Shown here in pieces: positions 4,934 to 20,600 of a DNA stretch of 64,000 bases. A program made the position numbers and the translations under genes. The first letter of the stretch is position 1. Every line of letters begins with the position of its first letter. Source of the stretch: Acidithiobacillus sp. (GTDB lineage: Bacteria; Pseudomonadota; Gammaproteobacteria; Acidithiobacillales; Acidithiobacillaceae); NCBI GenBank assembly GCA_050251535.1, contig JBFWMO010000003.1:9768-73767 (forward strand), in the 5' to 3' direction. The notes beneath the pieces were generated by a model. That model was not told the DNA's origin, did no database searches, and saw nothing but the letters and a program-made list of their open reading frames with translations.

Positions 4934-5117
4934 TTGCAAAGTAACCTGGCCGCGTGCGCGAACCTGCGGGAAGCCGTAGAACTCCGCAGGCGGCAACAGG
5001 ATTGGCCGCAGGTGCAACGGAGTGGCTATTTGCTGGACTTGCTCTGCTATTTTGCTCCGCAGCATAAGGGATTGTGCGTGACCGTGATAAAGAGCGGGGC
5101 AAGGGGCGTGATTTATG
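4934..5117 (+). pseudogene. deletion remnant of the 35049..36456 two-gene module
   Basis: 4975-5066 matches 35276-35361 (encoding ...WPQVQRSGYLLDLLCYFAPQH). It is joined directly to a copy of 36404-36459 (attgtgcgtgaccgtgataaagagcggggcaaggggcgtg.tttatgaaa). The junction lies at a shared GCAT. Confidence 0.65.
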
Positions 5118-5702
5118 AAACGAGAAGATATTGAAAAGTCATTCTCCCGGATTGGAGAGCTTGCGGACAGGCAGGGGATCATTGTCGATTTGGCGGTGTA
5201 TGGTGGTTCGGCAATGGCGTTACGATGGGAATTCCGCCGTTCCACAAGGGACGTGGATGTTATCATTTCTGGCGACAAATCTTTTATGAGAAAAGCCGTT
5301 TCTATGGTTGGCGAAGAAATGGGGCTGCCAGACAACTGGATGAACGATGCCGTAAAGGGTTTCTCTTCGTCCAACGCAGATCACGAGTTTTACAAGGAGT
5401 ATCTTGGCGAGAGCGGAGGGATCAGAGTGTTTGTTCCAAAAGCCGAATATCTTCTCGCCATGAAATGTATGGCGATGCGGCTGGATTCTCCTGACGGCCA
5501 TAACGACGCTGATGACATCAAGTCGCTAGTAGCTGTTGTCGGTGTGAAAAGCAAAAAAGATTTGTGTGATACGGTAGAGAGGTACTATCCTAGAGACAAA
5601 ATTCCGTCGAAAGTGTATTTTGGGATAGAACAAATCATGATCGAGGTGAACCTTGAGAACCGAAGAAAGCGCAAAAAATCTCCGCCCGAAAACTCTCTTT
5701 GA
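5115..5702 (+). CDS. nucleotidyltransferase-fold protein (MNT/DUF6036-like)
   Basis: The motif LAVYGGSAMALRWEFRRSTRDVDVI (GG-x-A...R-x-T/S-x-DVD) is typical of minimal NTases. The ATG overlaps the TGA of the upstream remnant. Confidence 0.65.
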   Translation: MKREDIEKSFSRIGELADRQGIIVDLAVYGGSAMALRWEFRRSTRDVDVIISGDKSFMRKAVSMVGEEMGLPDNWMNDAVKGFSSSNADHEFYKEYLGESGGIRVFVPKAEYLLAMKCMAMRLDSPDGHNDADDIKSLVAVVGVKSKKDLCDTVERYYPRDKIPSKVYFGIEQIMIEVNLENRRKRKKSPPENSL

Positions 5703-6069
5703 GGTTGCGCGGAGGGCTCGGGAAGGCGAAACCTCTGGCTTCGCAATCAAGGAATTTCTGGACGAATACTATGCGGCTCCGGCTGCGGATAGGCCGAGCA
5801 TGCTGGAAGCGGAGCCAGATTCGGTGGAACTTCCTGACCGCTGGAAGACTCTGGTAACGGACGCCTATCTTTCGGCGGTGGCCGAGGCGCTAAGTTACTA
5901 CGAAGGCAGGGATGCGCCTCGCTGGGTATTTCAGGACCGCTTTTTCCTGGACAACCCCTGGTTTGCTTCGCCCATCGACGGGATGAGACCCCTGCTGCTG
6001 ATGGAGAGCCCCGTGTTTTTCCGCAGAAGAAATCTGTTTGTCAGCCGGAACGCGCTGGCACGGGCGTGA
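5653..6069 (+). CDS. hypothetical protein, partner of the 5115 NTase
   Basis: TTG start 6 nt after GAGGTG. It overlaps the upstream gene by 50 nt. I recognise no motif. Confidence 0.45.
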   Translation: MRTEESAKNLRPKTLFEVARRAREGETSGFAIKEFLDEYYAAPAADRPSMLEAEPDSVELPDRWKTLVTDAYLSAVAEALSYYEGRDAPRWVFQDRFFLDNPWFASPIDGMRPLLLMESPVFFRRRNLFVSRNALARA

Positions 6070-6109
6070 GAATTTTGAAATCCGCAATACCCGTTGTTGC
6101 GCGGGCTGT

Positions 6110-6727
6110 CTATAGTTCTGGCCCTCGCCCTCTCCTGCGGCTGGGAAGTATTTGAGGGATTTTCCCAAGGACTCTGGTGAACCTCGCCGGAACGCTGGAG
6201 TGCAACCATCGTTCTTCTTCTGGCGTGAGGGCGGGGATTTTCCCCAGATTATGCAATACGGTGGGCCGCTCCACCAATCCATGCTCAATCATGGCATCGA
6301 GAAACGGTCCATCCTTGGGCCGGTTTGCGATGGTTTTGGCAAGGAACAGATCTGATGGGTGCATACAGTAACCGACGATCTGGTTGGTATTTTGGCTGGC
6401 CAGCTTATAGCAACGTGATTCCCAGCCTTGCGGCGCCCGTACCGTCTCTTTGGAAACTCCTTGGGCGTAATACCCAAAAGAGTGATGGAAGTACGAATCT
6501 TCTCCCAACGTGCCATCAATCAGGTCGGATTTTTTCTCATCATTGTCGATGGGGATGATGTTCGCTTCCGTCGATAATGTGAAAATGTTGGGCCACTGAC
6601 GTGGGGGCCTGCCGGCTTTTTCCCGTAGCCAAGGCAAAATCGACTGGCTTCCGATGATGAGTACCTCATGGTCCCCGACGATTGCCCCGGAAGCCCGGAT
6701 CAGATGCTCAAGCTGCTCTTCCGTCAT
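6110..6727 (-). CDS. nucleotidyltransferase-fold protein (DUF6036-like) with a C-terminal RGRGPEL tail
   Basis: Contains HEVLIIGSQSILPW and IPIDNDEKKSDL. It overlaps the upstream gene by 20 nt, a TA-like arrangement. Confidence 0.65.
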   Translation of the reverse strand: MTEEQLEHLIRASGAIVGDHEVLIIGSQSILPWLREKAGRPPRQWPNIFTLSTEANIIPIDNDEKKSDLIDGTLGEDSYFHHSFGYYAQGVSKETVRAPQGWESRCYKLASQNTNQIVGYCMHPSDLFLAKTIANRPKDGPFLDAMIEHGLVERPTVLHNLGKIPALTPEEERWLHSSVPARFTRVLGKIPQILPSRRRGRGPEL

Positions 6728-7139
6728 CCCATTGCCCCTCTCTCCACTTCTGCTCGAAATCCAGTAACACCTGCGTCCGCTCTCTGGTCGTCAGCACCAT
6801 GGCAAAGGGAGAACTGCTGCGCATGTCGATGGCGTGCTGATCGGTAGAAAGCATGAGGGAGCGTAAAGCTTCCAGACCTTCGGGAGAACGAACGGCTGCA
6901 TCGAGCCGTCCAACCCACTCAGCAAGCCACACGTCTTCTGGCCTTTCTTGGGAAAACCGTGCTGCCCAATCGCGGGCCTGCCACAGGTACATCTCTGTAC
7001 CCGAATCGGCAACTGAGGTTCCCAGAATCTTGCGGTAAATCGCCCGAAACAGGGCGAGACTTTTGGCGTCATGCCTCAAGAGACCCACTCCGGTATCCCC
7101 CCAATCTATGCAGCAAGCTCGATGCTGGGCGACGCACAA
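6708..7139 (-). CDS. hypothetical protein, upstream partner of the 6110 NTase (start uncertain, possibly the ATG at 6992)
   Basis: The ORF is translationally coupled to 6110..6727. I recognise no motif. Confidence 0.4.
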   Translation of the reverse strand: MCVAQHRACCIDWGDTGVGLLRHDAKSLALFRAIYRKILGTSVADSGTEMYLWQARDWAARFSQERPEDVWLAEWVGRLDAAVRSPEGLEALRSLMLSTDQHAIDMRSSSPFAMVLTTRERTQVLLDFEQKWREGQWDDGRAA

Positions 7140-7143
7140 AATC

Positions 7144-7185
7144 GTCTACCCGGTAGACGGTCTGCCCCGTCGGTGATCTATACCC
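7144..7185 (+). promoter_or_regulatory. operator-promoter module: palindrome GTCTACCCGGTAGAC (7144-7158), 3 nt, then CTGCCCCGtcggTGATCTATACCC
   Basis: Exact palindrome followed by the motif, 23 nt upstream of the RBS and ATG at 7209. Confidence 0.6.
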
Positions 7186-7208
7186 TATCGGAAATTCCGG
7201 AGGGAGTC

Positions 7209-8129
7209 ATGAGCCTGGGTATTCTGGATTCCCGAAGTGGAATCCTGGGTTTTCTTGCTGTTGGATCGATGTTGTTGCTGGTTGGCATCGGCCACTGGAT
7301 GCGTGCCGATTTTCCGCAGGTTTTGGCAGGGTATAGCGCGATCTTGCCTCTACTGGCTTTCTTGTCCATTCTCTTTTCCCTGGACTGGTTCGGAGAAACC
7401 ATCGTGGGATCGTGGGGAATCTGGCAAGCCAGAAGGGATTTGTTTCTGCTTCAGCAGGATCTTGCGGCTCTGGAGCAATGGCGCTTTGGCGGCAGAACGG
7501 GCGTGCTAGCATTCCTGATGCTGTTCTGGGCAAGCATCGCGGCCCTCGCGATATTTGGGTTTTTCTTTTTCTTCATGACAACCTGCACATTGCTTCGCCG
7601 CCATTCCGCCTGGCTTGGCACGGGGGAAGAAATGTTGGACTATTCCGTACTCTGTCTGGTCCTGTTCTGGATGATCTATGCCGGCTTCCTTCTGGTCTGG
7701 AGGAGCCGGCACCGTTTCCCACCCATCCCGGAAGAAGCGGTTCCGGGATTCGCTTCCGTGTTCGCATGGCGTAAAAACCGGCTGCTCCGCGATTCAGAAG
7801 AAGCCGTTGCCTTTCTTTCGCTTTTTCAGAATGCCTGCCCGGAATTTCTACAACCCAGGGGGTTCCCCTGGAAACTCCTGCTGTTCAGCCTTCCCGGATT
7901 CTGCTGGCACTTCTACCGCTGGGCAGGTGGACAATTTTCGCTTCCTCTTGCAGCAACGGCGACCATTGGATGGTTCGGTGCTGGAGCGGTGCTGTTGAGC
8001 TTGTGGTGGCTATTCCCCTGGTCCACCGCGCAAACCAGGGCGTTACTGCACCCGGAACGTGTATCGCCCTGCTCGTACTGGCCGATTCTGCGACTGCGGC
8101 AACTGGCTCAACAGATCCTTTTGCCATGA
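7209..8129 (+). CDS. polytopic membrane protein, unknown function
   Basis: Internal ATG with GGAGGGAG RBS in ORF 7071..8129. It has several hydrophobic helices. Confidence 0.55.
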   Translation: MSLGILDSRSGILGFLAVGSMLLLVGIGHWMRADFPQVLAGYSAILPLLAFLSILFSLDWFGETIVGSWGIWQARRDLFLLQQDLAALEQWRFGGRTGVLAFLMLFWASIAALAIFGFFFFFMTTCTLLRRHSAWLGTGEEMLDYSVLCLVLFWMIYAGFLLVWRSRHRFPPIPEEAVPGFASVFAWRKNRLLRDSEEAVAFLSLFQNACPEFLQPRGFPWKLLLFSLPGFCWHFYRWAGGQFSLPLAATATIGWFGAGAVLLSLWWLFPWSTAQTRALLHPERVSPCSYWPILRLRQLAQQILLP

Positions 8130-8139
8130 GCCTTTTGTC

Positions 8140-8150
8140 GATCTATACCC
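8140..8150 (+). promoter_or_regulatory. GATCTATACCC motif copy
   Basis: Lies 28 nt upstream of the ATG at 8179. Confidence 0.4.
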
Positions 8151-8178
8151 ACTGGTGGTAGGCTTTCGGAGATTCAGG

Positions 8179-8937
8179 ATGGACGCGATGTTGTTTCTGA
8201 TTTTTGTTGGGGGACTTCTTTGGATGGGGCAGTTCATCTGGTTTCCGGATGGTGACAAGCTACTTTCTTTGGTCTGTAAAGACCACCACCCGCCGGCAAG
8301 CCAGGAAGAAAAATGGGCAACGGAGCTGTACCGAGAGACTTTTGCGCCCAAAACCGGAGTTCGCTGGCTGGCGACATCGCTGGTCCTCAGCGGATGGGTA
8401 TCTTGGGTTTGCGTGTTTTTGGCAGCATCGCTGGTCTCCTTGGTCGCAGCGAATCTCCTTCCGAAAAATGCCATGATCGCCTGGTGTCTGATCATGGATT
8501 CCGCAGCCTATCTTGTGAGCATGGTGGCAATGTTGTTTCTGCTGGCACTGGAGACATGGCTGTTGCGACGAAAACACATCCCGTTGCGCCCCGGCGTGCG
8601 CAAGAAGGATTGGCTCGCATCCCATCCTTCTTCAGTAACCGCGTTTCTGAAAGGAAAACTGCCATGGTGGTTCTGGCTGGATTCCGGTCTCCCGGAAACC
8701 TTGTTGCGCTTCGTGGTATTTTTCGGTGGCTTTTTGGCATCTCTCGCAGCAATTCTGTACATGTCCCACGTCAACAACCCAGACATAATGACGGTCGCGA
8801 ACTTTTGGGAAGTATTCGTCTCTTGGGTGCTCGCTATTCTCTGCTTGCCACTCCCGATCACGATCTGGATGTCCTATATCGACTGGACACATCGGGATCG
8901 CGAGGTTTTGCTGCTGTGGGCGGCCAGACAGGGATAG
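8179..8937 (+). CDS. polytopic membrane protein, unknown function
   Basis: Internal ATG in ORF 8059..8937. It has multiple TM helices. Confidence 0.55.
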   Translation: MDAMLFLIFVGGLLWMGQFIWFPDGDKLLSLVCKDHHPPASQEEKWATELYRETFAPKTGVRWLATSLVLSGWVSWVCVFLAASLVSLVAANLLPKNAMIAWCLIMDSAAYLVSMVAMLFLLALETWLLRRKHIPLRPGVRKKDWLASHPSSVTAFLKGKLPWWFWLDSGLPETLLRFVVFFGGFLASLAAILYMSHVNNPDIMTVANFWEVFVSWVLAILCLPLPITIWMSYIDWTHRDREVLLLWAARQG

Positions 8938-9008
8938 TCAGTGGCAATTTCTGTGCTGTGTCCAGCCCGGAGCGGGAACCCCGCTTGCGCGTGGCCGGCG
9001 GACGGATG

Positions 9009-9878
9009 CTATAACTCAGGACCTTTCCGGGTGATTTTTGAGGGAGGTTGAGAGATCGGTTTTCTCTCCCTCACCTTTTCCTGCTGCATGGTCCTCGCAT
9101 TTTTTACGAGTTCCAGCGTCTCTTCCCAGAATCCCCTGCATAATTCCCGGAACCGCTCCCGCTGCGAGTTTTCCGGCAACTCATCCAGGCACGTCAATTC
9201 TGCGAGATGGGGGATCGTCTCCTGATATTCGGAGAGGGTCGCCAGGTAGGGGCGACGTGCTTCCGCCGGGACCACAATTGGCGGAAAGCCCGCTTTGAGA
9301 ACAGGCAGGTTCGCGAGCAGGCGCGCCAGGCGCCCATTCCCGTCAAAGAATGGATGAATGGTGACGAACTCCAGATGCAGATCGGCGTATTTCCCAGGCA
9401 GACACCTGTCTCCATCCGCTTGCTGTAGTGGAGCATTCAGGTGCTCCAGCCATTCCGTTACAAGTTGCGGAATGTGCTGGGGGTGCGGGTATTCTCGCCA
9501 GTGCTGTTTGCCATCCTGCCCAACGTAGCTGGTAAAGTTTGGCTCGTTCTTCCACTTGCCAATAGGGCGGTAGATGTCCACAACGACATCCGTTTGCACG
9601 GCGCGGTGCAGATCGAACAGGTCCTGCGCCAGGATTTTGCGATGGCTCTCCAGCAATCCGTAAATCAGATCGATGGCGCGAGCGTGTCCGACCACTTCCT
9701 GATGATCCTTCAGTGACTTGCCGCTAATGGTCAGACCTTCTTCCAGAAGAAAAGCGGTGTCTCCCAGGGAAAGCTGATTCCCTTCCAGGGCGGTCGATGT
9801 ATGTGACCAGAGATTGCGAATCTGGGAAAGCAGAATATCGCGGACATCCGGATCCAGGTTGTCAGTAAAACGGGGCAT
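9009..9878 (-). CDS. Fic family protein (AMPylase-type) with an N-terminal inhibitory motif and a C-terminal TRKGPEL tail
   Basis: Fic motif HPFFDGNGRLAR. It also has an S-x-x-x-E-G motif (STALEGNQ) near the N-terminus. The start is placed at the internal ATG (MPRFTDNL). Confidence 0.9.
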   Translation of the reverse strand: MPRFTDNLDPDVRDILLSQIRNLWSHTSTALEGNQLSLGDTAFLLEEGLTISGKSLKDHQEVVGHARAIDLIYGLLESHRKILAQDLFDLHRAVQTDVVVDIYRPIGKWKNEPNFTSYVGQDGKQHWREYPHPQHIPQLVTEWLEHLNAPLQQADGDRCLPGKYADLHLEFVTIHPFFDGNGRLARLLANLPVLKAGFPPIVVPAEARRPYLATLSEYQETIPHLAELTCLDELPENSQRERFRELCRGFWEETLELVKNARTMQQEKVRERKPISQPPSKITRKGPEL

Positions 9879-10025
9879 GCCAGGATTCCCCAAAAGAAAA
9901 TTGCACTGCGAATGATAGCACGGGACTGGACTGCGGCAATTTTCTTGCCAGGGTTGGCATTCTCCTCGCTCTGGCAACGCGCGCAGGCGAAGTTCCGTGC
10001 TCAGGCCCTATCTCCAGACCTCTTG

Positions 10026-10036
10026 GTCTATACCCC
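10026..10036 (+). promoter_or_regulatory. GTCTATACCCC motif copy upstream of trbF
   Basis: Lies 30 nt upstream of the ATG at 10067. It marks the restart of the trb operon after the cargo block. Confidence 0.4.
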
Positions 10037-10066
10037 TTCATCGGACTGGTTTGGAGAGGTTTATCG

Positions 10067-10738
10067 ATGGCGGGAAAACCTGATTACCTGGCGGCACGCC
10101 GGGAGTGGCTGGAGCGGTACGGGGATTACATCCAGCAGGCGAAAAACTGGCGAACGATGGCCTTTGGCTCCATCGCCATAGCCGCACTTTTCGGGGCGGG
10201 GATGGTGTACGAAGCCGACCGCGTTCATGTCGTTCCTTATGTCGTCGAAGTCAACAAGCTGGGACAGTCGGTAGAGCTGGCCCAGGCCGTGAAAGCGGGA
10301 GCGTTTGCGCAGCCCGTGGTGCGACACATCATCTCCCGCTTCGTCTGGCTCCTGTTTACCCAGACGCCCGACCTGAACGTGCAAAAAACCTTCGTCCACG
10401 AAAGCTATAACTATGTCGCGTCCATCGCGCAATCGCCGCTGGATGCGTTCTATCAGCGGCGGAATCCATACGCATCGTATGCCAACAAAACGCAGGGGCA
10501 CACGGTTACGATCGAAAGCGCGGAGCCTGTAGGCGACGTTACATCCAAAGGTGGATCGTACATTGTCGATTTCCGCGTCAAGAGCTATGGGCCGCATGGC
10601 AATCTCGATGGCGTAGTCAACTACCAGGGAACCATCAGCTATGCGACGGTTGCGCCGTCGAATAACCCGAACGTCCTGGAGGGGAACCCATTCGGGATCT
10701 ACATCACCCATTTTGCGTTTAGTCGTCAGCTTGGTTAA
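10067..10738 (+). CDS. trbF: conjugal transfer protein TrbF (VirB8-like)
   Basis: N-terminal TM anchor (MAFGSIAIAALFGAGMV). Its size and its position before trbG fit TrbF. Confidence 0.8.
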   Translation: MAGKPDYLAARREWLERYGDYIQQAKNWRTMAFGSIAIAALFGAGMVYEADRVHVVPYVVEVNKLGQSVELAQAVKAGAFAQPVVRHIISRFVWLLFTQTPDLNVQKTFVHESYNYVASIAQSPLDAFYQRRNPYASYANKTQGHTVTIESAEPVGDVTSKGGSYIVDFRVKSYGPHGNLDGVVNYQGTISYATVAPSNNPNVLEGNPFGIYITHFAFSRQLG

Positions 10739-10747
10739 GGGGGGGGC

Positions 10748-11872
10748 ATGAACCAGAAAAGCATCATGGTTGCCGCGCTATTGGCCACGACGCCCTGTCT
10801 CGCAGTCGCAGGCGTGGATACACAGGGATTGCCGCCAGTCCATCCCATTTCGTCTGGCCTGGCAGGGAAACCTGTTCCGCCAACGACGGGATTGGCCCCG
10901 GTCGCAGTGGGAGCCGCGCCAACGGCATCGGCAAAATCTCAACGACCCAGATACGTCGTACCCATCATTCATGCGGGGGGCGCCCCCGATGCTGCAAAGG
11001 TCTGGAAGCAGGCCATCGCCACTCCACCAGAAGGCGTCGAGTCCGCATCCACCAGGAAACTCGCGGAGCAGGCTTTGACAGCGTCCAGGGCCGCAGACAA
11101 AACCTTGCCTGTCGTCAAAGGGCAGGATGGCGGGATAATCAGCCTGGGCGGGCGCCCGGTCCTGGTTTGTTCGCCTCTGCATACCTGCGCTATCGAACTC
11201 CCTCGCGGTGTGCAGCCTGTGGTAACAGTTGGGGTGAGCAAATCTGAATGGTCGGTGCAGCAGGCCATGGTGGGAGATCAGGGAGAAGTGTTTGTCAGTC
11301 CCAAATTCGCGGGTCTGCACGAAAACATCATCATCGCAGGAACCGTAGAGGAAAAGCCGGTCAACTTCAATATCCGCCTGGTGTCTGACGCGAACCGATA
11401 CATACCCTATTTGCGGATCGCCGGGAGCGGCGAGCTTGTTCACCAATGGGGGGGCGCTGACAAGGCCGGGGGGTTCAGCCCGGCAACGTCAGACCTTTCC
11501 GGCCCAGGGCACAAAGCCAAAGAGCCTGCAGTTCTGCCTTTGCCAAATATCGATCTGGCAAAGGGTGTCAACAAAAACTGGTCCATTCAGTGCGGCGGCG
11601 GGGGGTGGTTCTCGTCAAGCGATTGCCAACCGATCAAACCGCTGCAAGTGTATGACGACGGCACACACACGTTCATCGAAATGCCTGGCGGTCTGGCGTC
11701 TCATGGTGGTTTCCCGATTCTACAGGCGAAGAACACCAGTGGGCATCTGATCGGGGTCAATACGCAAATTCGCGGCAACACGTATGTTGTTGACTCCGTT
11801 CCTGCGGAGATCACGCTTCGGGCGGGGTCGGAGGTTGCGATTATTCGTCGGAGGAGTGGGGGGCATCAATGA
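10748..11872 (+). CDS. trbG: conjugal transfer protein TrbG (VirB9-like)
   Basis: Has a signal peptide. The C-terminal block LQVYDDGTHTFIEMPGG...NTYVVDSVPAEITLRAGSEVAIIRR is typical of VirB9/TrbG. Confidence 0.85.
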   Translation: MNQKSIMVAALLATTPCLAVAGVDTQGLPPVHPISSGLAGKPVPPTTGLAPVAVGAAPTASAKSQRPRYVVPIIHAGGAPDAAKVWKQAIATPPEGVESASTRKLAEQALTASRAADKTLPVVKGQDGGIISLGGRPVLVCSPLHTCAIELPRGVQPVVTVGVSKSEWSVQQAMVGDQGEVFVSPKFAGLHENIIIAGTVEEKPVNFNIRLVSDANRYIPYLRIAGSGELVHQWGGADKAGGFSPATSDLSGPGHKAKEPAVLPLPNIDLAKGVNKNWSIQCGGGGWFSSSDCQPIKPLQVYDDGTHTFIEMPGGLASHGGFPILQAKNTSGHLIGVNTQIRGNTYVVDSVPAEITLRAGSEVAIIRRRSGGHQ

Positions 11873-12780
11873 ACATGGGGCAAATAAAATTGGGTACGTT
11901 CGTGAACCTGAAAAAGCTGGTGCCAGCCATCATCGCGCTGCCTTGTGTTTCCATCGCCAGCCCGTCCGGGCATTGGGAGAACACGGCTCAGGCGTGGTCA
12001 TCGCATGGTGCGGTGCGTGTCGAGCATCTGAAACAGGCAGAGAGAGACACACTGGCCGCGTATGCGAACGGGCATATCCGGAACTTGCCGATTCTCGCGA
12101 ATTACGCGGGCACCATGGCCTACCCATACGGGCAGATCACCCCGCTCCTGCAGACCATGCCGGGTGTCTTTTCCCAGGTCATCCTGGGTAAAGGCGTGCA
12201 TCCGGTGTCCATGGTAGGCGCGCCTGGATCGGAATGGGTGACGAACACCCACTTTGCTGCAGGGCATCCAGTGCTGGAAATCATGCCCCTACACGTGGGC
12301 CTGCATGCCAACGTGCAGATCAGCGCGGAAAGCCCTCACGGGCACCTGCTGACGTACACCATCGGCCTTGTCAGCGGCAATGGCACATACACGCCGACCC
12401 TCACTTTTTACCGAGAGCCGGCATATCACAAGCCAAGCATTCAGGAGGTAGCCAGGCTGGCCGCGCAGGAGGCCCTGAATCCGATCGCCAATGCCACAGA
12501 GGTAAGTACGGACTGGAAAGTGAGCTGCTACAACGGGGACTGCTCGGGGATTACCCCGATCTCGGTGCTGAACTCCAAAACGGCGACCTTCCTCAAGCTC
12601 CCCGCTGGAGCCAATCCGATGGTACTGGTGCGAGAGAAAGACGGGCTGTCCGTGCTGGTTCACACCCAGATGAACGGCGACACACTGGTCGTCGGGGCTG
12701 TCCCGTACCGGATTGACCTGATGAGCCATGGGAAAGGCGGCAACATCAACCTGGTCCGGGTGACGCGGGGGGAACCATGA
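11869..12780 (+). CDS. second VirB9/TrbG-like paralogue (occupies the usual trbH slot)
   Basis: ISVLNSKTATFLKLPAG...GDTLVVGAVPYRIDLMSHGKGGNINLVRVTRG aligns with the C-terminus of the upstream TrbG. It has ATGA-type overlaps on both sides. Confidence 0.6.
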   Translation: MNMGQIKLGTFVNLKKLVPAIIALPCVSIASPSGHWENTAQAWSSHGAVRVEHLKQAERDTLAAYANGHIRNLPILANYAGTMAYPYGQITPLLQTMPGVFSQVILGKGVHPVSMVGAPGSEWVTNTHFAAGHPVLEIMPLHVGLHANVQISAESPHGHLLTYTIGLVSGNGTYTPTLTFYREPAYHKPSIQEVARLAAQEALNPIANATEVSTDWKVSCYNGDCSGITPISVLNSKTATFLKLPAGANPMVLVREKDGLSVLVHTQMNGDTLVVGAVPYRIDLMSHGKGGNINLVRVTRGEP

Positions 12781-14117
12781 AAAGCGGAAAGGAGATGTTC
12801 TCCACCTTGTTTGGCAAGAGTGGAGCGAAAGAGAACAACGCAAGTTCTCAGGCTGCGCCGGACAGTTCTGCCGGCCCCAGGAGCGCGAGCGGCATTGACA
12901 TCAAGCCGTCCGGCGACGCAAAGGCCACCCGCATCCGGAAAACGCCCCTGATTGTCGGCATGGTAGTCATCGGTGTTGGCGGATACGCAGCGGTTGAGTA
13001 TATGCAGGGCCACAACTTCTTTTCCGGCGGCACGCAAGCCGGGCAAAGCGTAACGATCCAGCCCGCGAAAAACCCGCAAGGGCCGGGCATACCAAAATCC
13101 GAAAAGAAGCCATTGGCAAAGCCCAAAGCGCCTGTTGGATCGACTGCATCCTCTGCGTCTGAACCGGCAGATGGGCAAGGGGGCTCCCCAGCCAGTTCCG
13201 CCCCGCAAAATGGCGTTCCAAAGAAAAACCCTTACGCAGCGCAAGACGCGGCTTTCCAGGCAAGCATCGGCGGCGGATCAAGCGGCGGGAGTGGAGACAG
13301 CAGTCTGACATGGAAACAGCCACAGTCATCCGCGCCGACTGCAACGGAAAACCACCCGTCTTCGCAAATTGCGGCGATGCTACGATCCGCGCAGTCGGGT
13401 GCCGACAGGCAGAGCGGGAAAAAGAAGCCGGTTATGCCGCTGGTGACGCGGGAAACCAGCCCCTATGAGTTGCTGCAGGGTGCGGTGATTCCTGCGGTGT
13501 TGTCCGTTGGCATCAAAAGCTACCTGCCTGGAGAAATCAGCGCAGTCGTCAGCCGTGATGTGTACTCCAGCGTCAACGGAGCAACGCTGTTGATCCCGGC
13601 TGGCAGCAAACTGGTGGGCACTTATAACACCAAAACGGCGCTGGGCATCAACCGTCTACAGGTGGCGTGGACGCGAATCGAGTATCCCAACGGCACCTAC
13701 ATGAACCTGCCGGGCTATGAAGGGGCGGGAGGCTCCGGATACGCCGGATTTGCGGGGGAGGTGAACAACCATACCTGGCTCGTGTTCAAAAATGCGTTGC
13801 TGCTCTCGATTGTGAACGTGGGCATGGCAATTGCGAGCCCTACCAGCACGTCGAGCAATACCACCGGAGTAACAGGCAATCAGGCGCTGCAGGACGGAGA
13901 ACAAAGCCTCGCCCAGACCTTCGGACAGGCGGAGTCGCAGCTATTGCAGAAGTACATCGACATCGCCCCAACCATCACGATTCAGCCAGGGTATCTGTTC
14001 AACGTTGTCGTGACGAAAGACATGGTTTTCCCTGGCCCATACAACTCCGCGATGCAAACGGGTAGCGGCGCGGTGCATCCGGCGCTTCCATCTGCCGACA
14101 ACCCATACGGAGGCTGA
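12777..14117 (+). CDS. trbI: conjugal transfer protein TrbI (VirB10-like)
   Basis: TM anchor, then a Pro/Ser/Gly-rich linker. The C-terminal domain (GAVIPAVLSVGI...PAGSKLVGTYN...RLQVAWTRIEYPNG...TITIQPGYLFNVVV) fits VirB10. Confidence 0.85.
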   Translation: MKSGKEMFSTLFGKSGAKENNASSQAAPDSSAGPRSASGIDIKPSGDAKATRIRKTPLIVGMVVIGVGGYAAVEYMQGHNFFSGGTQAGQSVTIQPAKNPQGPGIPKSEKKPLAKPKAPVGSTASSASEPADGQGGSPASSAPQNGVPKKNPYAAQDAAFQASIGGGSSGGSGDSSLTWKQPQSSAPTATENHPSSQIAAMLRSAQSGADRQSGKKKPVMPLVTRETSPYELLQGAVIPAVLSVGIKSYLPGEISAVVSRDVYSSVNGATLLIPAGSKLVGTYNTKTALGINRLQVAWTRIEYPNGTYMNLPGYEGAGGSGYAGFAGEVNNHTWLVFKNALLLSIVNVGMAIASPTSTSSNTTGVTGNQALQDGEQSLAQTFGQAESQLLQKYIDIAPTITIQPGYLFNVVVTKDMVFPGPYNSAMQTGSGAVHPALPSADNPYGG

Positions 14118-14118
14118 C

Positions 14119-14400
14119 ATGCGCGGAAACATTATCGTACGCAGCGAATCTGATGAGGGATGGGGGCTGCCCCCAGATGCGCGGACAGAAATCCTGACCC
14201 GAGAACTGCGCGCAATGTCGGACGCTGAACTGCGTGCCATGGCTGCGCGCAGGGAGAAGCAGCGCCCTGGGCGGCGGCTTCGCCCGGTCTCCATCACGCT
14301 GCCAGCGGATGTGCTGGAACGGCTACAGCAACTCAGCGGATCTCACCTGAGCGTGTCCGCGCTCGTGGACCGAATTTTTTCTTCGCAGGGAAAGCCCTGA
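14119..14400 (+). CDS. ribbon-helix-helix (CopG-like) small protein
   Basis: RPVSITLPADVLERLQQLS...SVSALVDRI fits an RHH beta-alpha-alpha pattern. Confidence 0.55.
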   Translation: MRGNIIVRSESDEGWGLPPDARTEILTRELRAMSDAELRAMAARREKQRPGRRLRPVSITLPADVLERLQQLSGSHLSVSALVDRIFSSQGKP

Positions 14401-14999
14401 TGAATGACGCTCTTGCCGTAGTTTTTGATCTGGATGGCGTGCTGCTCAATTTTGAGCGGGCGTGGCGAGAATGCGCGGAACAGGTGTTGCGGAAACAGGT
14501 GAGGCGCATTTCCGACAAATATCCTCTGCTGGATCGTTATGGATTGTCTCGCCACGACTGCAATCGGGTCTGGGCAGAATTTCATGAGGACTGGTGGGAC
14601 CGCGTGCCACTCTATGAGCATGTCCCACAGATCCTTGCCGAGCTGGAAGACATGGGGGCAGAAGTCTGGGCGGTGACGAATGTCGATGTCCGACACCGGG
14701 ACGCCAGAACCATCTCTCTGGGTGGCCTGATACCGTTTGCCCGGATTTTCTGCCTGGGGGAAAACGCCCCCCCGCAGGAACGCAGGGACATGCTTCGGTG
14801 CATCCGCGCGAAGGCATTCGTTGATGACCGGATTGAGAATCTACATGCCGTTACAAACGAAATTCCACTAGCGGTCCACCTGAACCGTGGGTATTTGGGC
14901 ATGGAGTCGCCAGGAGACGGCATAACCGTCATCGACGATTTGCGAGATTTTCCGGAAATCGTCAGAGGTATTCAAAGGGGAGGGGGAGGCGCAGGCTAA
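14400..14999 (+). CDS. HAD-superfamily hydrolase
   Basis: Motif I VVFDLDGVLLN. It also has a distal acidic motif (AFVDDRIEN). Confidence 0.7.
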   Translation: MNDALAVVFDLDGVLLNFERAWRECAEQVLRKQVRRISDKYPLLDRYGLSRHDCNRVWAEFHEDWWDRVPLYEHVPQILAELEDMGAEVWAVTNVDVRHRDARTISLGGLIPFARIFCLGENAPPQERRDMLRCIRAKAFVDDRIENLHAVTNEIPLAVHLNRGYLGMESPGDGITVIDDLRDFPEIVRGIQRGGGGAG

Positions 15000-15001
15000 G
15001 A

Positions 15002-15844
15002 ATGCTCTGGTACCTCATCCTCTGCTTTCCTCACGCAGCCCTCCAAGGCACTCTATGGCCTTTCATTGGATTCTTGGGGGTGCTATCGATGTGGGGAGTC
15101 AGCACATTCCGGCGATGGCGGTCCGAGTGGGCTGAGTATTGGTTGTGGGCGATGTCGTGGCCCATATTGCTGTATTTGGATACCTTTGGGAAAGACAAGC
15201 CGGAATTGGAAACCAACGAGGATTGGGCGCGGTGGGCAAAGAAATATTGGCAATTGCGATATATGTCTCACTGTTGCAGAACGGGGTGGTGGATAAATCT
15301 GTTCTTCGCCATCCTCACATCCGGAATTCTGCTGTACACCGTCTCCTGGGGAATCTTCCACCCGGAAGATCGCTTGCCGGACATCCTGGTTTATGTCGCA
15401 TCCGGCATTTATGTATTCACGCTGTTTGTCTGGAGTGGCTGGGCAAGCCGGATACCGCCCAAGGATATATTGCTTTGCAATGCCTGTAATATCTCGTCAA
15501 ACCATCTATACGATATACTGCAAAAGTTTCCGGAAATAAAAAACGGTCCAGCACCGGGATGGACACATCCAACCCGTAGGCTGGTCCTGCGCAAAGAATT
15601 TTTGCGCTATCTCTTTTCGCTTTTGCCCGTCCTCTTCGTGTTGCTGGAACAGGAGTTTGATAGCGGGTGGCTGGTTCTCAGCGGACTGATTGCGCTTTTC
15701 GTTTTCTGGCATGTGTGGGGAGCACTGGCCCGGCTTTCCTATCCCCTGGTGCGATACCGATTGCCTGTGGAGGGTCCAGATGAATTTTGTGTTCGCGTGT
15801 TTCGTGATGACCTGGAAGAAGTCTGCCGAGGAAGCCAAAAATGA
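15002..15844 (+). CDS. polytopic membrane protein, unknown function
   Basis: Has several TM helices and is coupled to flanking genes by overlaps. Confidence 0.5.
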   Translation: MLWYLILCFPHAALQGTLWPFIGFLGVLSMWGVSTFRRWRSEWAEYWLWAMSWPILLYLDTFGKDKPELETNEDWARWAKKYWQLRYMSHCCRTGWWINLFFAILTSGILLYTVSWGIFHPEDRLPDILVYVASGIYVFTLFVWSGWASRIPPKDILLCNACNISSNHLYDILQKFPEIKNGPAPGWTHPTRRLVLRKEFLRYLFSLLPVLFVLLEQEFDSGWLVLSGLIALFVFWHVWGALARLSYPLVRYRLPVEGPDEFCVRVFRDDLEEVCRGSQK

Positions 15845-16374
15845 TACCAATCCACCATCTTCTGTCTGAATGCGCGCCACTGGTTGCCCCGGCAACGATG
15901 GCCGCTATCGTCCGGGTGGAGTCCGGAGGCAATCCGCTGGCGATGTACAACAACGCAACCAGGCAGACCATTCTGCCGTCGGGCCTTGCCCAAGCGCGAG
16001 CCTATCTGTCGAAGGCAATAGCCGCCGGGCAAAAAGTGGATGTTGGCCTGGCGCAAGTCGATACCGAAAATTTTGCACAATACGGATTGAATGGGAACAA
16101 CGCATTCAACGCCTGCGCCAACCTGCGCGTCGGGTCGCAGATATTGGCCGCGGACTATTTCAAAGCTGCGCGCCGGTATGGGGTGGGACAACAGGCACTG
16201 TTCCATGCGTTTGAGGCATACAACTCAGGTCGGCTGCGCGGCGATTCACCCTATGCCCTGAAAATACTGTCAGCGGCGGGGGCGCCCGCGTTGGTCCCCG
16301 TGACCTATCAGCAACGAGAGAGCCCCGTATTTTCTCCCTGGGTAGGGACAGCGGGATGGACGGTTTTGCCGTGA
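15841..16374 (+). CDS. lytic transglycosylase (VirB1-like, SLT domain)
   Basis: MAAIVRVESGGNPLAM contains the catalytic Glu-Ser context. GLAQV is also present. Confidence 0.85.
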   Translation: MIPIHHLLSECAPLVAPATMAAIVRVESGGNPLAMYNNATRQTILPSGLAQARAYLSKAIAAGQKVDVGLAQVDTENFAQYGLNGNNAFNACANLRVGSQILAADYFKAARRYGVGQQALFHAFEAYNSGRLRGDSPYALKILSAAGAPALVPVTYQQRESPVFSPWVGTAGWTVLP

Positions 16375-16409
16375 CAGTATTTCTTCGTTAGCGTAAGGAG
16401 GTTTCTCCC

Positions 16410-18884
16410 ATGCCTGGAAGGCAGTCAGTTCCAACAGATCACCGTCCATCTTCTGAGGTTCTGGATTACAAAACCCAGCGTCTTGCCCGAGGCGGCAGCA
16501 CCAAAACGCTGGTGGCCGGGATTGCGGCGGGAGCAGTCGGGTTTACCTTGGGCGTCTCTTACGTTGCGCGCGAGGTTTTTCCCGGATACCAATGGACTGA
16601 TGAGTTCATCCAGAAAGCGCACGCTTACATTGCCATCGCAGGATGGCGACTATATAACCCGATCCCGTTTTTGCGCCCGATGATCCTGAACATCCACTAT
16701 CCGGTGATCCATCAAGCACTCTATTACGCTGGCCTGCCAGCCGTGACGCTGGGAGTGCTGACAGCGGGAATACTTGGGAAAAAGCACAAGGACGCACAGG
16801 CTGCGGTACTGAACAACCCGGTTCATGGGTCGGCCCGTTGGGCTACCCGAGAGGACGCCATACGAGCAGCGTTGCTCCCGGCAACTCCCTCGCCGACGAT
16901 GATGGACCGGCTACGTGTGGTTTTGGGCGTATCCGCAAAAAACGGCAAGCCTTCCCAGAAAAACGTGGATGAAGCCCGGAAAAAAGAGGGCGAAGAGTGG
17001 CGGAAAAGGAATGCCGCACAAAAGAACGTAGACGTGTCAGAAATTCCCGATCCGATATTTTTCCAAAAATTCCCGTCTGATCATGTCTGTTATGTCGGCG
17101 CCTTTGTTGAAAAAGGCAAGGCGACGCCTTTGCAGCACACCGGCGCCGAACATATTCTCTGCTTCGCTCCTACCCGATCCGGCAAGGGCGTGGGCCTGGT
17201 GCTCCCAACGCTCCTGGACGGGTGGATGGATTCCGTCGTGGTCAACGACATCAAGGGGGAAAATTTTCACCTGACCGCTGGCTATCGCAAAGAGCGCGGG
17301 CATCATATTTTGAAGTTCTCCCCTGGATCGGTGCACGACGATGGTTGCCACTTTAACCCGCTCGATGCCGTACGGGTGGGGACAACCTACGAAATCAAGG
17401 ATGTCATGAACATCGCCACGATGATCGTGGACCCGGACGGCAAGGGCTTGAATGATCACTGGCAGAAAACCGGCTTTGCCCTGTTGACCTCCGTGATCCT
17501 GCATGTTCTGTATGCGATGCCAGACAAAACGCTGCGGGGTGTTGCAGCGTACCTGAACGACCCTACGCTAGAAAGCGTCGATGTCGCGTTCGAGCGCATG
17601 ATGCAAACGGTTCACGACTCGGAAGAACAGTTCGGCTGGAAAGACGGGAACAACAATCCAACACAGGTGCATCCTGTGATTGCGCAATCTGCGCGGGAAA
17701 TGCTGAACAAAGCCGACAACGAGAAATCCGGTGTAATCTCGACCATGATGAGCTTTTTGAGCCTCTACCGCGATCCCATCGTGGCACGATGGACAGAGTA
17801 TAGCGACTTCAGAATCACCGACCTGCAGGACGCAGACAAGCCAGTATCTCTCTACCTGGTAACGTCACCAGAAGACAAGGGGCGATTGAAACCATTGATC
17901 CGCCTCATACTCAACCAAATCGCCTCGCAGTTCACATCGGAAGAGCGCCTGTCCGCGACAAACGGGCGGATCGAGTGCGTTGGAAAACACCGCTTGCTGC
18001 TGCTCCTCGATGAATTTCCGAGTCTCGGCAAAATGGACATCTTTCAGGATTCCATCGCGTTTCTGGCTGGTTACAACATCAAGCTGTACCTGATCACGCA
18101 AGATATCGCGCAGTTGGAAGATGAGGGACACGGCTACGGAAAGGCTGGAGCGAAGGCCATCATCGGAAACTGCCACGTCCGGGTAGCCTACGCGCCCAAC
18201 CAGGTGGAAACGGCCAAGTGGGTATCCGATATGCTTGGCATTCGCACCATCACTCTGGAGAACGACAACAAGAGCTTCGATGGCGGGCTCATCTCGCAAC
18301 AGAAGGGGTATTCGACCAGCGTCAGCTACCAGTCACGACCGCTACTCACGGCGGACGAAGTGATGACCCTACGCGGTCCGTTGAAAGAGGGATCCAGCAT
18401 CAAGGAGCCGGGTGACGTGCTCGTATTCGTCGCCGGGTATTCGCCCGTCTACGGCCAGCAACTTCTGTACTTTCAAAACCCCGAGTGGCTGGATCGTGCG
18501 TCTGTCGCCTGGCCGGAGAAAAGCGACAAGCTGCCTGGCGCCGAAAAAGATTACGAGTCTATTTTCGGTCCGGGTGCTGGAAAGCTGCCGATCCCGGAGA
18601 TCCAGAGAAAAGACGATGCAGCCGGTAGCAACGGCGATGGCGAAGCCCCACCCACAGAAGAGGAACGCGTTGCGCTGGCTGCAACAACGAAAGAACTCGA
18701 CGCGCTAGCGGAGGATGACGACGATATCCCGACCGGAACCGGGAAATATGATACCCGCGAACGCGATGCAGACAGGGCGGCGACGGCCCGGCTGCAGAAG
18801 GCAACAGATCCGGAAGATGTTCCGGAAGAAGAATGGGATGATCAGGAATACCCTGAAGAGTGGGAAGAGACTGCCGGTGATTGA
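16410..18884 (+). CDS. traG: type IV coupling protein TraG/VirD4
   Basis: AAGGAGG RBS. N-terminal TM helices, Walker A APTRSGKGVG, Walker B-like LLLLDEFPSLG, and an acidic C-terminal tail. Confidence 0.9.
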   Translation: MPGRQSVPTDHRPSSEVLDYKTQRLARGGSTKTLVAGIAAGAVGFTLGVSYVAREVFPGYQWTDEFIQKAHAYIAIAGWRLYNPIPFLRPMILNIHYPVIHQALYYAGLPAVTLGVLTAGILGKKHKDAQAAVLNNPVHGSARWATREDAIRAALLPATPSPTMMDRLRVVLGVSAKNGKPSQKNVDEARKKEGEEWRKRNAAQKNVDVSEIPDPIFFQKFPSDHVCYVGAFVEKGKATPLQHTGAEHILCFAPTRSGKGVGLVLPTLLDGWMDSVVVNDIKGENFHLTAGYRKERGHHILKFSPGSVHDDGCHFNPLDAVRVGTTYEIKDVMNIATMIVDPDGKGLNDHWQKTGFALLTSVILHVLYAMPDKTLRGVAAYLNDPTLESVDVAFERMMQTVHDSEEQFGWKDGNNNPTQVHPVIAQSAREMLNKADNEKSGVISTMMSFLSLYRDPIVARWTEYSDFRITDLQDADKPVSLYLVTSPEDKGRLKPLIRLILNQIASQFTSEERLSATNGRIECVGKHRLLLLLDEFPSLGKMDIFQDSIAFLAGYNIKLYLITQDIAQLEDEGHGYGKAGAKAIIGNCHVRVAYAPNQVETAKWVSDMLGIRTITLENDNKSFDGGLISQQKGYSTSVSYQSRPLLTADEVMTLRGPLKEGSSIKEPGDVLVFVAGYSPVYGQQLLYFQNPEWLDRASVAWPEKSDKLPGAEKDYESIFGPGAGKLPIPEIQRKDDAAGSNGDGEAPPTEEERVALAATTKELDALAEDDDDIPTGTGKYDTRERDADRAATARLQKATDPEDVPEEEWDDQEYPEEWEETAGD

Positions 18885-18997
18885 GTGGACTGGACGACTG
18901 TGGAAGTTCAAGCTGTCCGAAGTGGATGAATGGGGGCGCGCCGGTGGCGCCAACGAAGAGAAAAATGAGGAATCAATCTCATCCCGTTCGAAACTCT

Positions 18998-19966
18998 TCA
19001 CAGCTCAGGGCCTCCTTTGCCCCTCATCGAGGCATGGTGATCTCTGACAGCTTCTTTTTTCAGCAGGTCACGCAAGACAGAGAGTTGACCAAGAACAGTG
19101 CGTTCAAAATGCTTTTCATATCCAGCGATACCAAACATCTGCGCGTGCTGATCTTGCGGAAGAAAGCGCGCCATCTGGTCCCGAAATGGGCCGCCGCTGG
19201 AAATGATCGGGATTGCCGTGATTGCCCGGCCCAGATAATCAGGGAAATCCGCCAATCCGTAATCAGCGACCTTTTTTCGCACCATGTCAGCATCCACTAC
19301 AGCCCCTTGTGTCGCTAGCCAGGACATATCCCAAATGTCCCGATGTCGAATCCGCGTTGGGGTGAACTCCATCCCTGTATCCGTGCGTCTCGAAATGGAT
19401 GATGGAAGGGCAACCAACTTGTCTGCGAGAATCTCATCCATACTTTCCACCACAACCAGCGGCTGATGCCGGCCTTCCAGTACAGGGTAGTTAATGCGCA
19501 GCGGAAAAACCTCTCTGGTATACGCTGGCACATTGGCGATTTCCAGCTTGATTCTTTGCCGTGGCAGATCCGCTCGTCCAGGGCTGGTCTCGATGGCCAG
19601 CATCCACTTGTTTACCTGCACAAGCCCATGCGTTTTATCCTTCTTTGGTTCCCGGACAGAAACCGCCAGGCCAAAACGCTTGCCGATCCTGGAAACCACA
19701 CAGTCCTTGATTTCTGCCATGCTGTCCGAGCAAAAATCCCTGCCACCGGCAAAATCCAGGTCTTCGCTGAAACGCTGGGAGCCATAGCAAAGTCGCAAGG
19801 ATGTGCCGCCCTGAAACACGAGATGTTTCAGGAGCCCCGCGCCGTCCATCGCCGCGAAAATCTCATAATGCAAAAGCTCCTTCTCGACAACCGGGCGAAT
19901 GAATTTCAGTTGCCCATCCTGCATTGCCTTGTCTACATACGCAGAGAACGCCTCACCATCCATCAT
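18998..19966 (-). CDS. abiEii: AbiEii/AbiGii-family nucleotidyltransferase toxin with a C-terminal RGKGGPEL tail
   Basis: Contains LVFQGGTSLRLCYGSQRFSEDLDFAGG. It overlaps the upstream AbiEi-like gene by 14 nt. Confidence 0.8.
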   Translation of the reverse strand: MMDGEAFSAYVDKAMQDGQLKFIRPVVEKELLHYEIFAAMDGAGLLKHLVFQGGTSLRLCYGSQRFSEDLDFAGGRDFCSDSMAEIKDCVVSRIGKRFGLAVSVREPKKDKTHGLVQVNKWMLAIETSPGRADLPRQRIKLEIANVPAYTREVFPLRINYPVLEGRHQPLVVVESMDEILADKLVALPSSISRRTDTGMEFTPTRIRHRDIWDMSWLATQGAVVDADMVRKKVADYGLADFPDYLGRAITAIPIISSGGPFRDQMARFLPQDQHAQMFGIAGYEKHFERTVLGQLSVLRDLLKKEAVRDHHASMRGKGGPEL

Positions 19967-20498
19967 CGACCTCGCTCAAATCCATCATGTCTACATTCCG
20001 TCCCACACGGCGCAGATCCTGAATCGCGGCGTCCCTTTTGGCAATCCGCAACGGACGACCCTCGACTACCAGCGTTCTGCCCAACAGATCGGCAATGCTG
20101 CGCTTCGTATGCGTGAATTCGATCACCCCAAACGGGGTGTCATGAACCCCTTTCGCTCCAGTCGTCATAACCGTCAATCGGTCCACGGGGATTTGCGAGA
20201 TCACGCCATACTCGGAAAGCATGCATTCCAGAGAAACATAGTTGAATGCCCCAGGTCGCAATGCCAGCGCAACCTCTTCGATTATTCTGCCCCGGTGTCT
20301 GGATGCCGCCATCCCAAATACATAAACACCACGGGCAGCATGAACAAGCAGCCCATCCTTGCACATACGCTGTAAACTTTTCTCCAGTGCCTTGGCGCTC
20401 TCCTCCGGGAACATCTTTTCCAAATCTCTGCGGGAGAAGACATAGATTCCCTTTCGTTCCAGCGGGGACAGGCGTTGCAGCAAGTCCATTCTGTTCAT
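19953..20498 (-). CDS. abiEi: AbiEi-family antitoxin/transcriptional regulator
   Basis: Contains SLQRMCKDGLLVHAARGVYVFG and is paired with AbiEii. The start is placed at the internal ATG (MNRMDLL). Confidence 0.7.
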   Translation of the reverse strand: MNRMDLLQRLSPLERKGIYVFSRRDLEKMFPEESAKALEKSLQRMCKDGLLVHAARGVYVFGMAASRHRGRIIEEVALALRPGAFNYVSLECMLSEYGVISQIPVDRLTVMTTGAKGVHDTPFGVIEFTHTKRSIADLLGRTLVVEGRPLRIAKRDAAIQDLRRVGRNVDMMDLSEVDDGW

Positions 20499-20600
20499 GT
20501 GCTCAGTTATCCTATTTCTGTGTAGGGATTCTATACACATAATAGATCACGGAGAGCGGAAGCGCAGCAGGTCTCCCCCGCCCCGTCAGAACAAAAGGCG

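Follow-up and report, generated by a model that had tools for sequence, protein, structure and literature searches.

A recurring basic Gly-Pro-Glu-Leu C-terminal tail on toxin-type proteins of an Acidithiobacillus conjugative element, a candidate type IV secretion signal

Here we report that three toxin-type proteins encoded by a conjugative element of Acidithiobacillus sp. end in the same basic Gly-Pro-Glu-Leu (GPEL) tail, and that related endings are conserved in orthologues, enriched among genes flanking TraG/VirD4 homologues and present on relaxases. We read the tail, with a probability of about 0.6, as a C-terminal translocation signal recognised by the coupling protein of a type IV secretion system (T4SS). 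The genes lie in a window of 64,000 nt (assembly GCA_050251535.1, contig JBFWMO010000003.1, positions 9,768-73,767, forward strand), to which coordinates refer unless another sequence is named. A conjugative element carrying a P-type T4SS occupies the window from position 1 to ~39 kb, a setting proposed in a first-pass annotation of this DNA and borne out by the Trb/VirB, TraG, Par and Tra genes that Pfam and NCBIfam models identify. The three open reading frames (ORFs) do end in GPEL-stop, as that annotation had stated, and Pfam assigns them to DUF6036, Fic and AbiEii. The genes on which the argument rests are as follows.

5115..5702, plus strand: third DUF6036-like nucleotidyltransferase (NTase), ending RRKRKKSPPENSL, basic and a loose relative of the motif
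6110..6727, minus strand: DUF6036-family NTase (Pfam PF19502), tail SRRRGRGPEL at 6113..6142, stop codon at 6110..6112
6708..7139, minus strand: partner gene of the preceding NTase and putative antitoxin, upstream of it and overlapping its start
9009..9878, minus strand: Fic/DOC-family protein (Pfam PF02661), tail KITRKGPEL at 9012..9038
16410..18884, plus strand: TraG/VirD4-type coupling protein (Pfam T4SS-DNA_transf, TraG-D_C, TrwB_AAD_bind), the proposed receptor
18998..19966, minus strand: AbiEii NTase toxin (PF08843 at 4.6e-30), immediately 3' of traG/virD4, tail MRGKGGPEL at 19001..19027
19953..20540, minus strand: AbiEi antitoxin (PF13338 at 5.9e-5), ending acidic ...DLSEVDDGW without a basic tail
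35296..36456 (likely ATG at 35548), plus strand: second DUF6036 NTase, with a C-terminal extension and the tail ERGKGRGL at 36430..36453

The first-pass annotation had called the three tailed proteins unrelated, which is overstated, since DUF6036 and AbiEii are both Pol-beta-type NTases; the third NTase (5115..5702) weakly matches both Pfam models. The word toxin is likewise loose for the Fic protein (100% identity to P0001, 'Fic family protein [Acidithiobacillus sp.]'), which has the active motif HPFFDGNGR and, as S-T-A-L-E-G, the N-terminal inhibitory motif S-x-x-x-E-G; read on these motifs, it is an auto-inhibited class II-type Fic and not a classical two-gene FicT toxin. The DUF6036 NTase at 6110..6727 is identical to P0241 (NCBI 'DUF6036 family nucleotidyltransferase [Acidithiobacillus sp.]'); its partner ends in ...GQWDDGRAA without a basic tail, has no significant Pfam family, and has counterparts conserved upstream of NTase homologues at four other loci (L001, L012, L099 and L103). 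AbiEi and AbiEii show the AbiE type IV layout, the winged helix-turn-helix (wHTH) AbiEi gene preceding AbiEii with an overlap at 19953..19966. For the second DUF6036 NTase the tail first described stood and the coordinate 35555 did not, being out of frame; the ending KGRGL is a VirF-like 'RGL' variant of the motif. The ending KRKKSPPENSL of the third NTase was correctly given, and its kinship to the others is only loose.

The identity of the three tails lies at the peptide level, because the codons differ (GGG CCA GAA CTA TAG in the DUF6036 gene, GGT CCT GAG TTA TAG in the Fic gene, GGC CCT GAG CTG TGA in the AbiEii gene) and the flanking DNA is not alike: the tail-coding DNA plus 150 nt downstream of the three genes aligned no better than shuffled controls. 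Translated in six frames, the whole window contains GPEL only five times, three of them as the last residues of ORFs that are 200 amino acids (aa) or longer. The agreement is far beyond chance, with about 3e-5 triples sharing any terminal 4-mer expected among the 76 called genes and 2 of 20000 tail shuffles reaching it.

Orthologues of each of the three genes keep the motif. AbiEii relatives at 62-68% identity, those of A. sulfuriphilus and A. thiooxidans among them, end in ...KRPKRGPEL, ...KKSRRGPEL, ...GKKKRGPEL, ...LKNGPEL and ...RKRKKPGLEL. Fic relatives end in ...ARKGPEI and ...AGKGPEI at 72-76% identity and in ...GRKGL and ...SRKGL at ~65%, and most members of the Fic family stop right after the last helix, ~20 aa earlier than the tailed ones. 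DUF6036 relatives end in ...RKGPEIG, ...GKGPEI, ...RNGPEIG, ...RHGPGIG, ...KKSGLEI and ...KDRGIGL, some of them with an extra domain of 80-120 aa that is placed before the tail, never after it. Throughout the orthologues two to five Lys/Arg directly precede the Gly, the linker varies in length and sequence, and the tails run up to the stop codon or fall one Gly short of it. With a diverging linker and a constant basic run and terminal G-x-[E/G]-[L/I], the tail behaves as a short linear motif needing a free C-terminus: a stretch of Lys/Arg and then G-x-[E/G]-[L/I]-COOH, attached by a flexible linker that varies.

For AbiEii, AlphaFold gives a model with a mean predicted local distance difference test (pLDDT) of 88.5, against 66 for residues 311-320 and 49 for the last block, made up of residue 321 only; the fold is thus predicted with confidence and the tail region with low confidence, which fits an unstructured tail. 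Net charge over the last 15 residues of the window's tailed proteins is +1 to +4. In a representative library at 50% identity the GRGL tail of 35548..36456 is limited to its own cluster, so that it is a lineage-specific addition and not a family trait. A scan of viral contigs gave 15 AbiEii homologues, all distant and all without the tail, which we count in favour of a T4SS signal.

A pattern for the ending, R1 = G.[GE][LI]G?$, was fixed after the A. sulfuriphilus locus L007 had been seen and before 80 metagenome loci, picked solely for encoding a TraG/VirD4 relative, were fetched. It matched 10 of the 1135 called genes in these loci, where composition predicts 0.16% (p = 1.7e-5); among 4775 shadow ORFs there were 7 matches (odds ratio 6, p = 3e-4). 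The 10 matches fall at the exact C-terminus, as against 0-2 at each offset from 1 to 9 and 0-1 for permuted patterns, and the pattern is 4.5-fold commoner at the exact C-terminus than internally. (In the window, 5115..5702 does not match R1.) Relaxases, which are obligate coupling-protein substrates, make up four of the 10 matches and adjoin the coupling protein (4 of 25 relaxases vs 6 of 1110 other genes, p = 3.5e-5):

Two relaxases with Relaxase and DUF3363 domains: ends ...FGRKRGLGI and ...LGKKRGLGL
Two relaxases with Relaxase, TraI_middle and LPD7 domains: ends ...GQSRGGIEL and ...HNLGPEL

The remaining relaxases have other basic or Gly-containing ends (...RGRSR-like, ...SPELKR, ...GGIQR), some of which recur on toxin homologues in other lineages, as in the AbiEii P0219 (...RNPELER) and the relaxase of L026 (...KSPELKR). 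The first-pass annotation had placed the identity of the tails in the peptide amid unrelated downstream DNA, and had proposed to look for the motif in orthologues and in related elements; it was right on the former, and the latter proved conserved in the one and enriched and position-specific beside TraG/VirD4 homologues in the other. The lack of conservation that it had named as refuting its idea is not what the orthologues show. These computational checks favour its suggestion of a shared T4SS/TraG signal; its alternatives of a degron or a docking peptide are less likely.

Strict tails occur in five independent contexts, all of them T4SS or integrative and conjugative element (ICE) regions (the window, L001, L010, L012-16 and L007), and coupling-protein or T4SS genes share an element with the tails in the window, L001, L010 and L012. 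At L001, a Fic protein ending ...KGPEI and a DUF6036 protein ending ...GPEIG adjoin VirB6, VirB4, VirB3 and VirB2; at L010, AbiEi and an AbiEii ending ...NGPEL directly follow a truncated ORF, which we interpret as the C-terminal portion of a TraG-like coupling protein; and at L012-16 a DUF6036 protein ending ...GKGPEI lies 2 kb from a TraG homologue. In the ICE region of L007, AbiEii (...RGPEL) is followed by four consecutive genes with related ends, and a string of genes at L019/L005 has related Gly-containing ends that are mostly looser than the strict form.

L007, gene after AbiEii: 1685-aa ArdC-N/MPTase polyvalent protein, ...DRDRGIGL
L007: 398-aa protein, ...QAQGVGL
L007: 94-aa protein, ...RALGIEL
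L007: LPD7 protein, ...RSKGMGL (...RAKGRGL in the close variant L008)
L019/L005: MPTase, ..KSLGR (looser)
L019/L005: Toprim_3 primase-like protein, ..KAKGVER (looser)
L019/L005: HEAT-repeat protein, ..KAKGVER (looser)
L019/L005: 99-aa protein, ..AMGISL
L019/L005: HEPN protein, ..QQLGL (looser)
L019: DUF6036 protein, same protein and tail as 35548..36456, adjoining a related coupling protein, ..KGRGL (strict)

NCBIfam and PDB sequence searches with the unannotated tailed proteins (the 422-aa protein of L012, the 398-aa protein of L007, the 575-aa protein of L044 and others) gave no match, and a literature search on the tail strings and DUF3363 returned nothing relevant. A contig scan with TraG gave only four loci (L003-L006), with no strict tails within 10 kb, a set that is therefore unable to test enrichment.

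The ending is consistent with known VirB/VirD4 signals. Read directly from the octopine Ti plasmid (NC_002377), Agrobacterium VirF ends in ...SADRPRSTRGL, VirE3 in ...RERSTSRGF and VirE2 in ...RSQSVNSF. Like these, the present tail is short, hydrophilic, positively charged and at the extreme C-terminus, with one or more small residues and a hydrophobic end, and the receptor class, a coupling protein of the TraG/VirD4 family, is encoded in the window. The KGRGL of the window and the RKGL of Fic relatives are like VirF ...RGL, and GPEL may be a variant of the VirF-type end with Pro-Glu inserted. For VirB/D4 substrates, Vergunst in 2005 reportedly gave the consensus R-x7-R-x-R-x-R-x-x(n); set against it, SRRRGRGPEL has R-x-R, and KITRKGPEL and MRGKGGPEL have only two basic residues, Lys often standing for Arg, in a comparison that took spacing only loosely. 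Unlike the Agrobacterium signal, the main form here is G-P-E-[L/I], Pro and an acidic Glu preceding the last residue, with Lys as frequent as Arg, and the carriers, whose translocation we propose from sequence, belong to an acidophile and are ICE proteins and toxin–antitoxin-type enzymes and not plant-directed effectors. Deletion of the last Arg-Gly-Leu of VirF, or of its arginines, abolished VirB/D4 transfer, according to PMC8740702 (citing Vergunst 2005). The same Ti plasmid (L106) has its own AbiEi/AbiEii pair (12666..13601, minus strand), whose AbiEii ends in ...LRSTTRGQS, reminiscent of VirF ...RPRSTRGL.

In Bartonella, the FicT toxin VbhT is exported by a conjugative T4SS through a signal shared with relaxases, and the authors of that work predict further toxin–antitoxin toxins with short basic signals (PMC5675462). 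As with VbhT and the Bep proteins, which join a FIC domain to a relaxase-derived BID domain and a basic tail, Fic or toxin–antitoxin-type toxins are here encoded beside a conjugative T4SS, AbiEii/AbiEi after traG and DUF6036 with its partner, as well as Fic, between virB6 and virB8. Unlike VbhT and Bep, the present proteins have no BID domain, as Pfam gives only Fic, AbiEii or DUF6036 and ~20-40 residues follow the catalytic domain; the signal would take ~10 residues instead of the ~100 aa of a BID domain, and it is found on four enzyme families (AbiEii, DUF6036, Fic and HEPN), with matching relaxase tails from related elements.

Many proteins of both plasmid and host pass out through the conjugation systems of F, pKM101 and RP4 (the 'conjutome'), some via positive C-terminal signals (PMC11288057, PMC8406263); whereas those reports give no discrete consensus, a defined terminal motif recurs across families here. 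The RP4 substrates TraI and TraC end in ...TTRGRSR and ...RQRRARTY, and ArdC and the TraC1 primase pass to the recipient during conjugation (PMC5512222). RP4 (L108, CP152305.1) also encodes Upf31.0 (32113..32808, plus strand), of the plasmid fertility-inhibition family PFIN, which ends in ...SGPRKGRGL, the same ending as window gene 35548..36456 and the RGL of VirF. The antibacterial T4SS effectors of Xanthomonas (XVIPCD) are recognised by VirD4 and need a mixed basic and hydrophobic extreme C-terminus for transfer (PMC8740702); unlike the present proteins, in which nothing comparable precedes the tail, they have a folded domain of ~120 aa, whose Gln-rich tail makes contact with the all-alpha domain by binding it.

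Conservation in orthologues, enrichment near TraG, sharing with relaxases and an ArdC-type protein, and likeness to VirF make a T4SS signal the best supported explanation of the tail. We propose that, in the P-type conjugative elements of Acidithiobacillia (those with Trb/VirB plus TraG/VirD4), it would mark proteins and that the element's coupling protein would recognise it, perhaps electrostatically through the acidic C-terminal domain of TraG, together with a pocket for the terminal hydrophobic residue and carboxylate. The last 124 residues of the window's TraG (18510..18881) contain 38 Asp/Glu and 14 Lys/Arg, a net charge of about -24, and are a plausible electrostatic partner of the basic tail; the nearest plasmid relatives of this protein are IncP-1 TraG, at 39% identity. 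Marked proteins would leave via the mating channel into the recipient together with the DNA, and the AbiEii, DUF6036 and Fic enzymes, as candidate interbacterial effectors like VbhT without its BID domain, would be delivered without their tail-less antitoxins. That the antitoxins lack the tail is counted for this proposal. By analogy, such a mechanism would work like the basic C-terminal signal of VirB/VirD4 substrates and like VbhT, and not like a BID-type effector.

We infer a T4SS signal at no greater strength than this because the relaxase of this ICE was not found, looser variants also sit in chromosomal toxin–antitoxin loci, and the degron and docking rivals remain; several findings weigh against it. 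The strict ending is on only 4 of 25 relaxases, and neither the window nor its closest loci yielded a relaxase of this ICE family, so that the relaxase tail match comes from other TraG-linked elements. A phmmer search with four relaxases against all ORFs of the window and close loci matched only in L006, and Pfam and NCBIfam models on uncharacterised ORFs returned TraB, TrbJ, TraR-like, S8 peptidase, PLD and other matches, and no relaxase. The 7/217 matches in Acidithiobacillia ICE loci are not independent, since R1 was generalised after seeing L007. Close T4SS relatives (L003-L005, L017) carry cargo without the strict tail, and a Glu just before the last residue is uncommon for the Arg-rich consensus of Agrobacterium. 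An AbiEii ending ...KGHGPSR (L097) and a DUF6036 protein ending ...RRGPSLGR (L099) are chromosomal with no T4SS gene within 10 kb, so that the looser variants are either not tied to T4SSs or are relics. Close homologues without the tail also occur on mobile elements (beside a relaxase at L101; on the A. caldus island L103) and in an ICE of a different T4SS type (T4SS_TraI, T2SSE; L104/105), so that the contrast is one of T4SS types or elements and not of mobile versus chromosomal genes.

Among other explanations, it is unlikely that the tail, with no export involved, docks proteins on the coupling protein or on some different hub of the element, holding toxins or transfer modulators in the donor. 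Osa-type fertility-inhibition factors do block substrate binding to VirD4, RP4 Upf31.0 shares its ending with a window gene, and helicase-island proteins of L103 share a …YG(G)RRP tail with no T4SS gene seen within 10 kb; yet the present tail is also on relaxases and an ArdC-type polyvalent protein and, in looser form, on a primase-like protein, classes that are exported in studied systems (PMC5512222), and the same end in VirF is needed for transfer itself (PMC8740702). Somewhat less likely still is a C-terminal degron for ClpXP or Lon that would keep toxins and transfer proteins short-lived. An extreme C-terminal, basic and flexible end with an aliphatic last residue would suit such a role, and the tail loosely resembles ClpX C-motif 2, exemplified by MuA ...RRKKAI, in joining a basic stretch to an aliphatic end. 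Those degrons, however, have no link to T4SSs or relaxases and lack the conserved Gly and Glu/Gly positions; the labile partner of a toxin–antitoxin pair is normally the antitoxin, yet it is the antitoxins that are without the tail here, and enrichment near coupling-protein genes, sharing with relaxases and likeness to VirF would be left unexplained.

That the tail is a generic basic extension of AT-hook or RGG-like type, aiding enzymes of tRNA or DNA by binding nucleic acid, we regard as improbable. Many carriers do act on nucleic acids (NTases, relaxases, primase-like proteins, ArdC), and some tails contain R-G-R-G-P, but the conserved G-x-[E/G]-[L/I]-COOH has an acidic residue and is fixed at the C-terminus, neither of which a charge patch needs, and the tail is found on Fic, HEAT-repeat and 94-99-aa proteins and is absent from the DNA-binding antitoxins. 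Coincidence, composition, or a shared DNA repeat or recombination scar is hardly credible. Four residues are a short match and basic C-termini are common; against this stand the ~3e-5 expected triples, the differing codons and unrelated flanks, the conservation in orthologues, the position specificity and the near-empty permuted controls. A repeat or scar as the origin is ruled out by tail and flanking DNA that align no better than shuffled sequence. An antitoxin-docking peptide is ruled out too, as the three families have three different partners or none and the same tail, and so is PEP-CTERM or GlyGly-CTERM sorting, there being no transmembrane segment and the basic run standing before the motif and not after it.

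The remaining genes of the T4SS and the element backbone are these.

1399..2208, plus strand: TrbJ (Pfam/NCBIfam), start of the P-type T4SS block 1399..16374
2435..4366, plus strand: TrbL/VirB6
~4400..10000: cargo block inserted between virB6 and virB8
10067..10738, plus strand: VirB8
10748..11872 and 11869..12780, plus strand: two tandem copies of the VirB9/CagX family in the T4SS operon, instead of one
12777..14117, plus strand: VirB10
15841..16374, plus strand: SLT transglycosylase, end of the T4SS block
20601..21788, minus strand: ParB, start of the element backbone (20601..27727)
21781..22533, minus strand: ParA
23255..23974, minus strand: TraF-type S26 peptidase
25477..26691, minus strand: TraB
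26688..27320, minus strand: UDG
27311..27727, minus strand: TraR-type zinc finger

Tailed genes occupy two cargo slots, the virB6-virB8 interval and the site directly after traG. The backbone is followed by genes for topoisomerase III and HicA and by a reverse transcriptase accompanied by a SLATT_5 effector; past ~40 kb the genes are metabolic or housekeeping-like, and none of them has the tail. A megablast search of 4000..21000 against plasmids gave no match, and a look-up of the gene at 38..1057, made to extend the window leftward, returned no record. The sole tRNA gene in the window, tRNA-Leu(taa) at 52839..52923 (minus strand), may mark the site of integration and, with it, where the element truly ends on the right; were it so, the genes at 40-52 kb (MCP, MFS, GST, YceI and MerA-like) would count as cargo.

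Within the conjugative element we observed a 15-bp palindrome, GTCTACCSGGTAGAC, in 12 copies where 0 are expected, all of them inside the element and mostly intergenic (7144, 22994, 24469, 25454, 27819, 27890, 28754, 28886, 28939, 29025, 31517 and 34414, spanning 7144..34428). Many copies lie ~15-25 bp from a GGTATAGATCA box, and the palindrome looks like an operator of a global regulator of the element or of a ParB/KorB-type protein. The reverse transcriptase (RVT_1, 465 aa) and the two-transmembrane SLATT_5 effector that follows it (36776..38993, minus strand; guanine-cytosine (GC) content low, at ~0.47) are probably a defence-type reverse transcriptase system carried as cargo, and a PNP_UDP_1 phosphorylase-like gene (31931..32941, plus strand) is probably a recent foreign acquisition, its third-position GC being 0.37 compared with ~0.63 elsewhere. 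At 27959..28707 (plus strand) a HicA-like toxin with a weak Pfam match and a 147-aa protein with a weak wHTH match, which have no basic tail, may form a further toxin–antitoxin pair of the element. Beyond the window, five neighbouring proteins of the helicase/defence-like island of L103 (A. caldus JBPSEZ010000004.1, 6573..17391) share a different tail (...AFAYGGRRP, ...QFAYGRRP, ...ISGGSRP, ...IHYSPRP, ...VIRPKP), a hint that C-terminal tails specific to an element or system may be more widespread.

The signals that direct proteins into conjugative T4SSs are described as short, basic and very hard to predict (PMC5675462), and the exported proteome of conjugative elements is little charted beyond a few model plasmids. 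A discrete motif, fixed in position and common to four toxin families as well as to relaxases, anti-restriction proteins and primase-like proteins, would allow T4SS substrates of one lineage to be recognised from sequence. The precedent of VbhT would be extended, in that toxin–antitoxin toxins would be recruited as interbacterial effectors by adding only ~10 residues, and the motif offers minimal tags for protein delivery through P-type systems. The motif would also raise a testable idea on the role of delivered toxins in establishing the incoming element. As a conjecture that we think doubtful, each family of conjugative elements may use its own short C-terminal 'zip code', which its coupling protein would read and which would define a shipped set of relaxase, primase, anti-restriction and polyvalent proteins together with toxins of several families without their antitoxins, and the toxins would poison recipients that destroy or do not express the element. 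If true, such 'addiction at entry' would enforce establishment and punish restriction, and the exported proteome of an uncultured element would be readable directly from its sequence.

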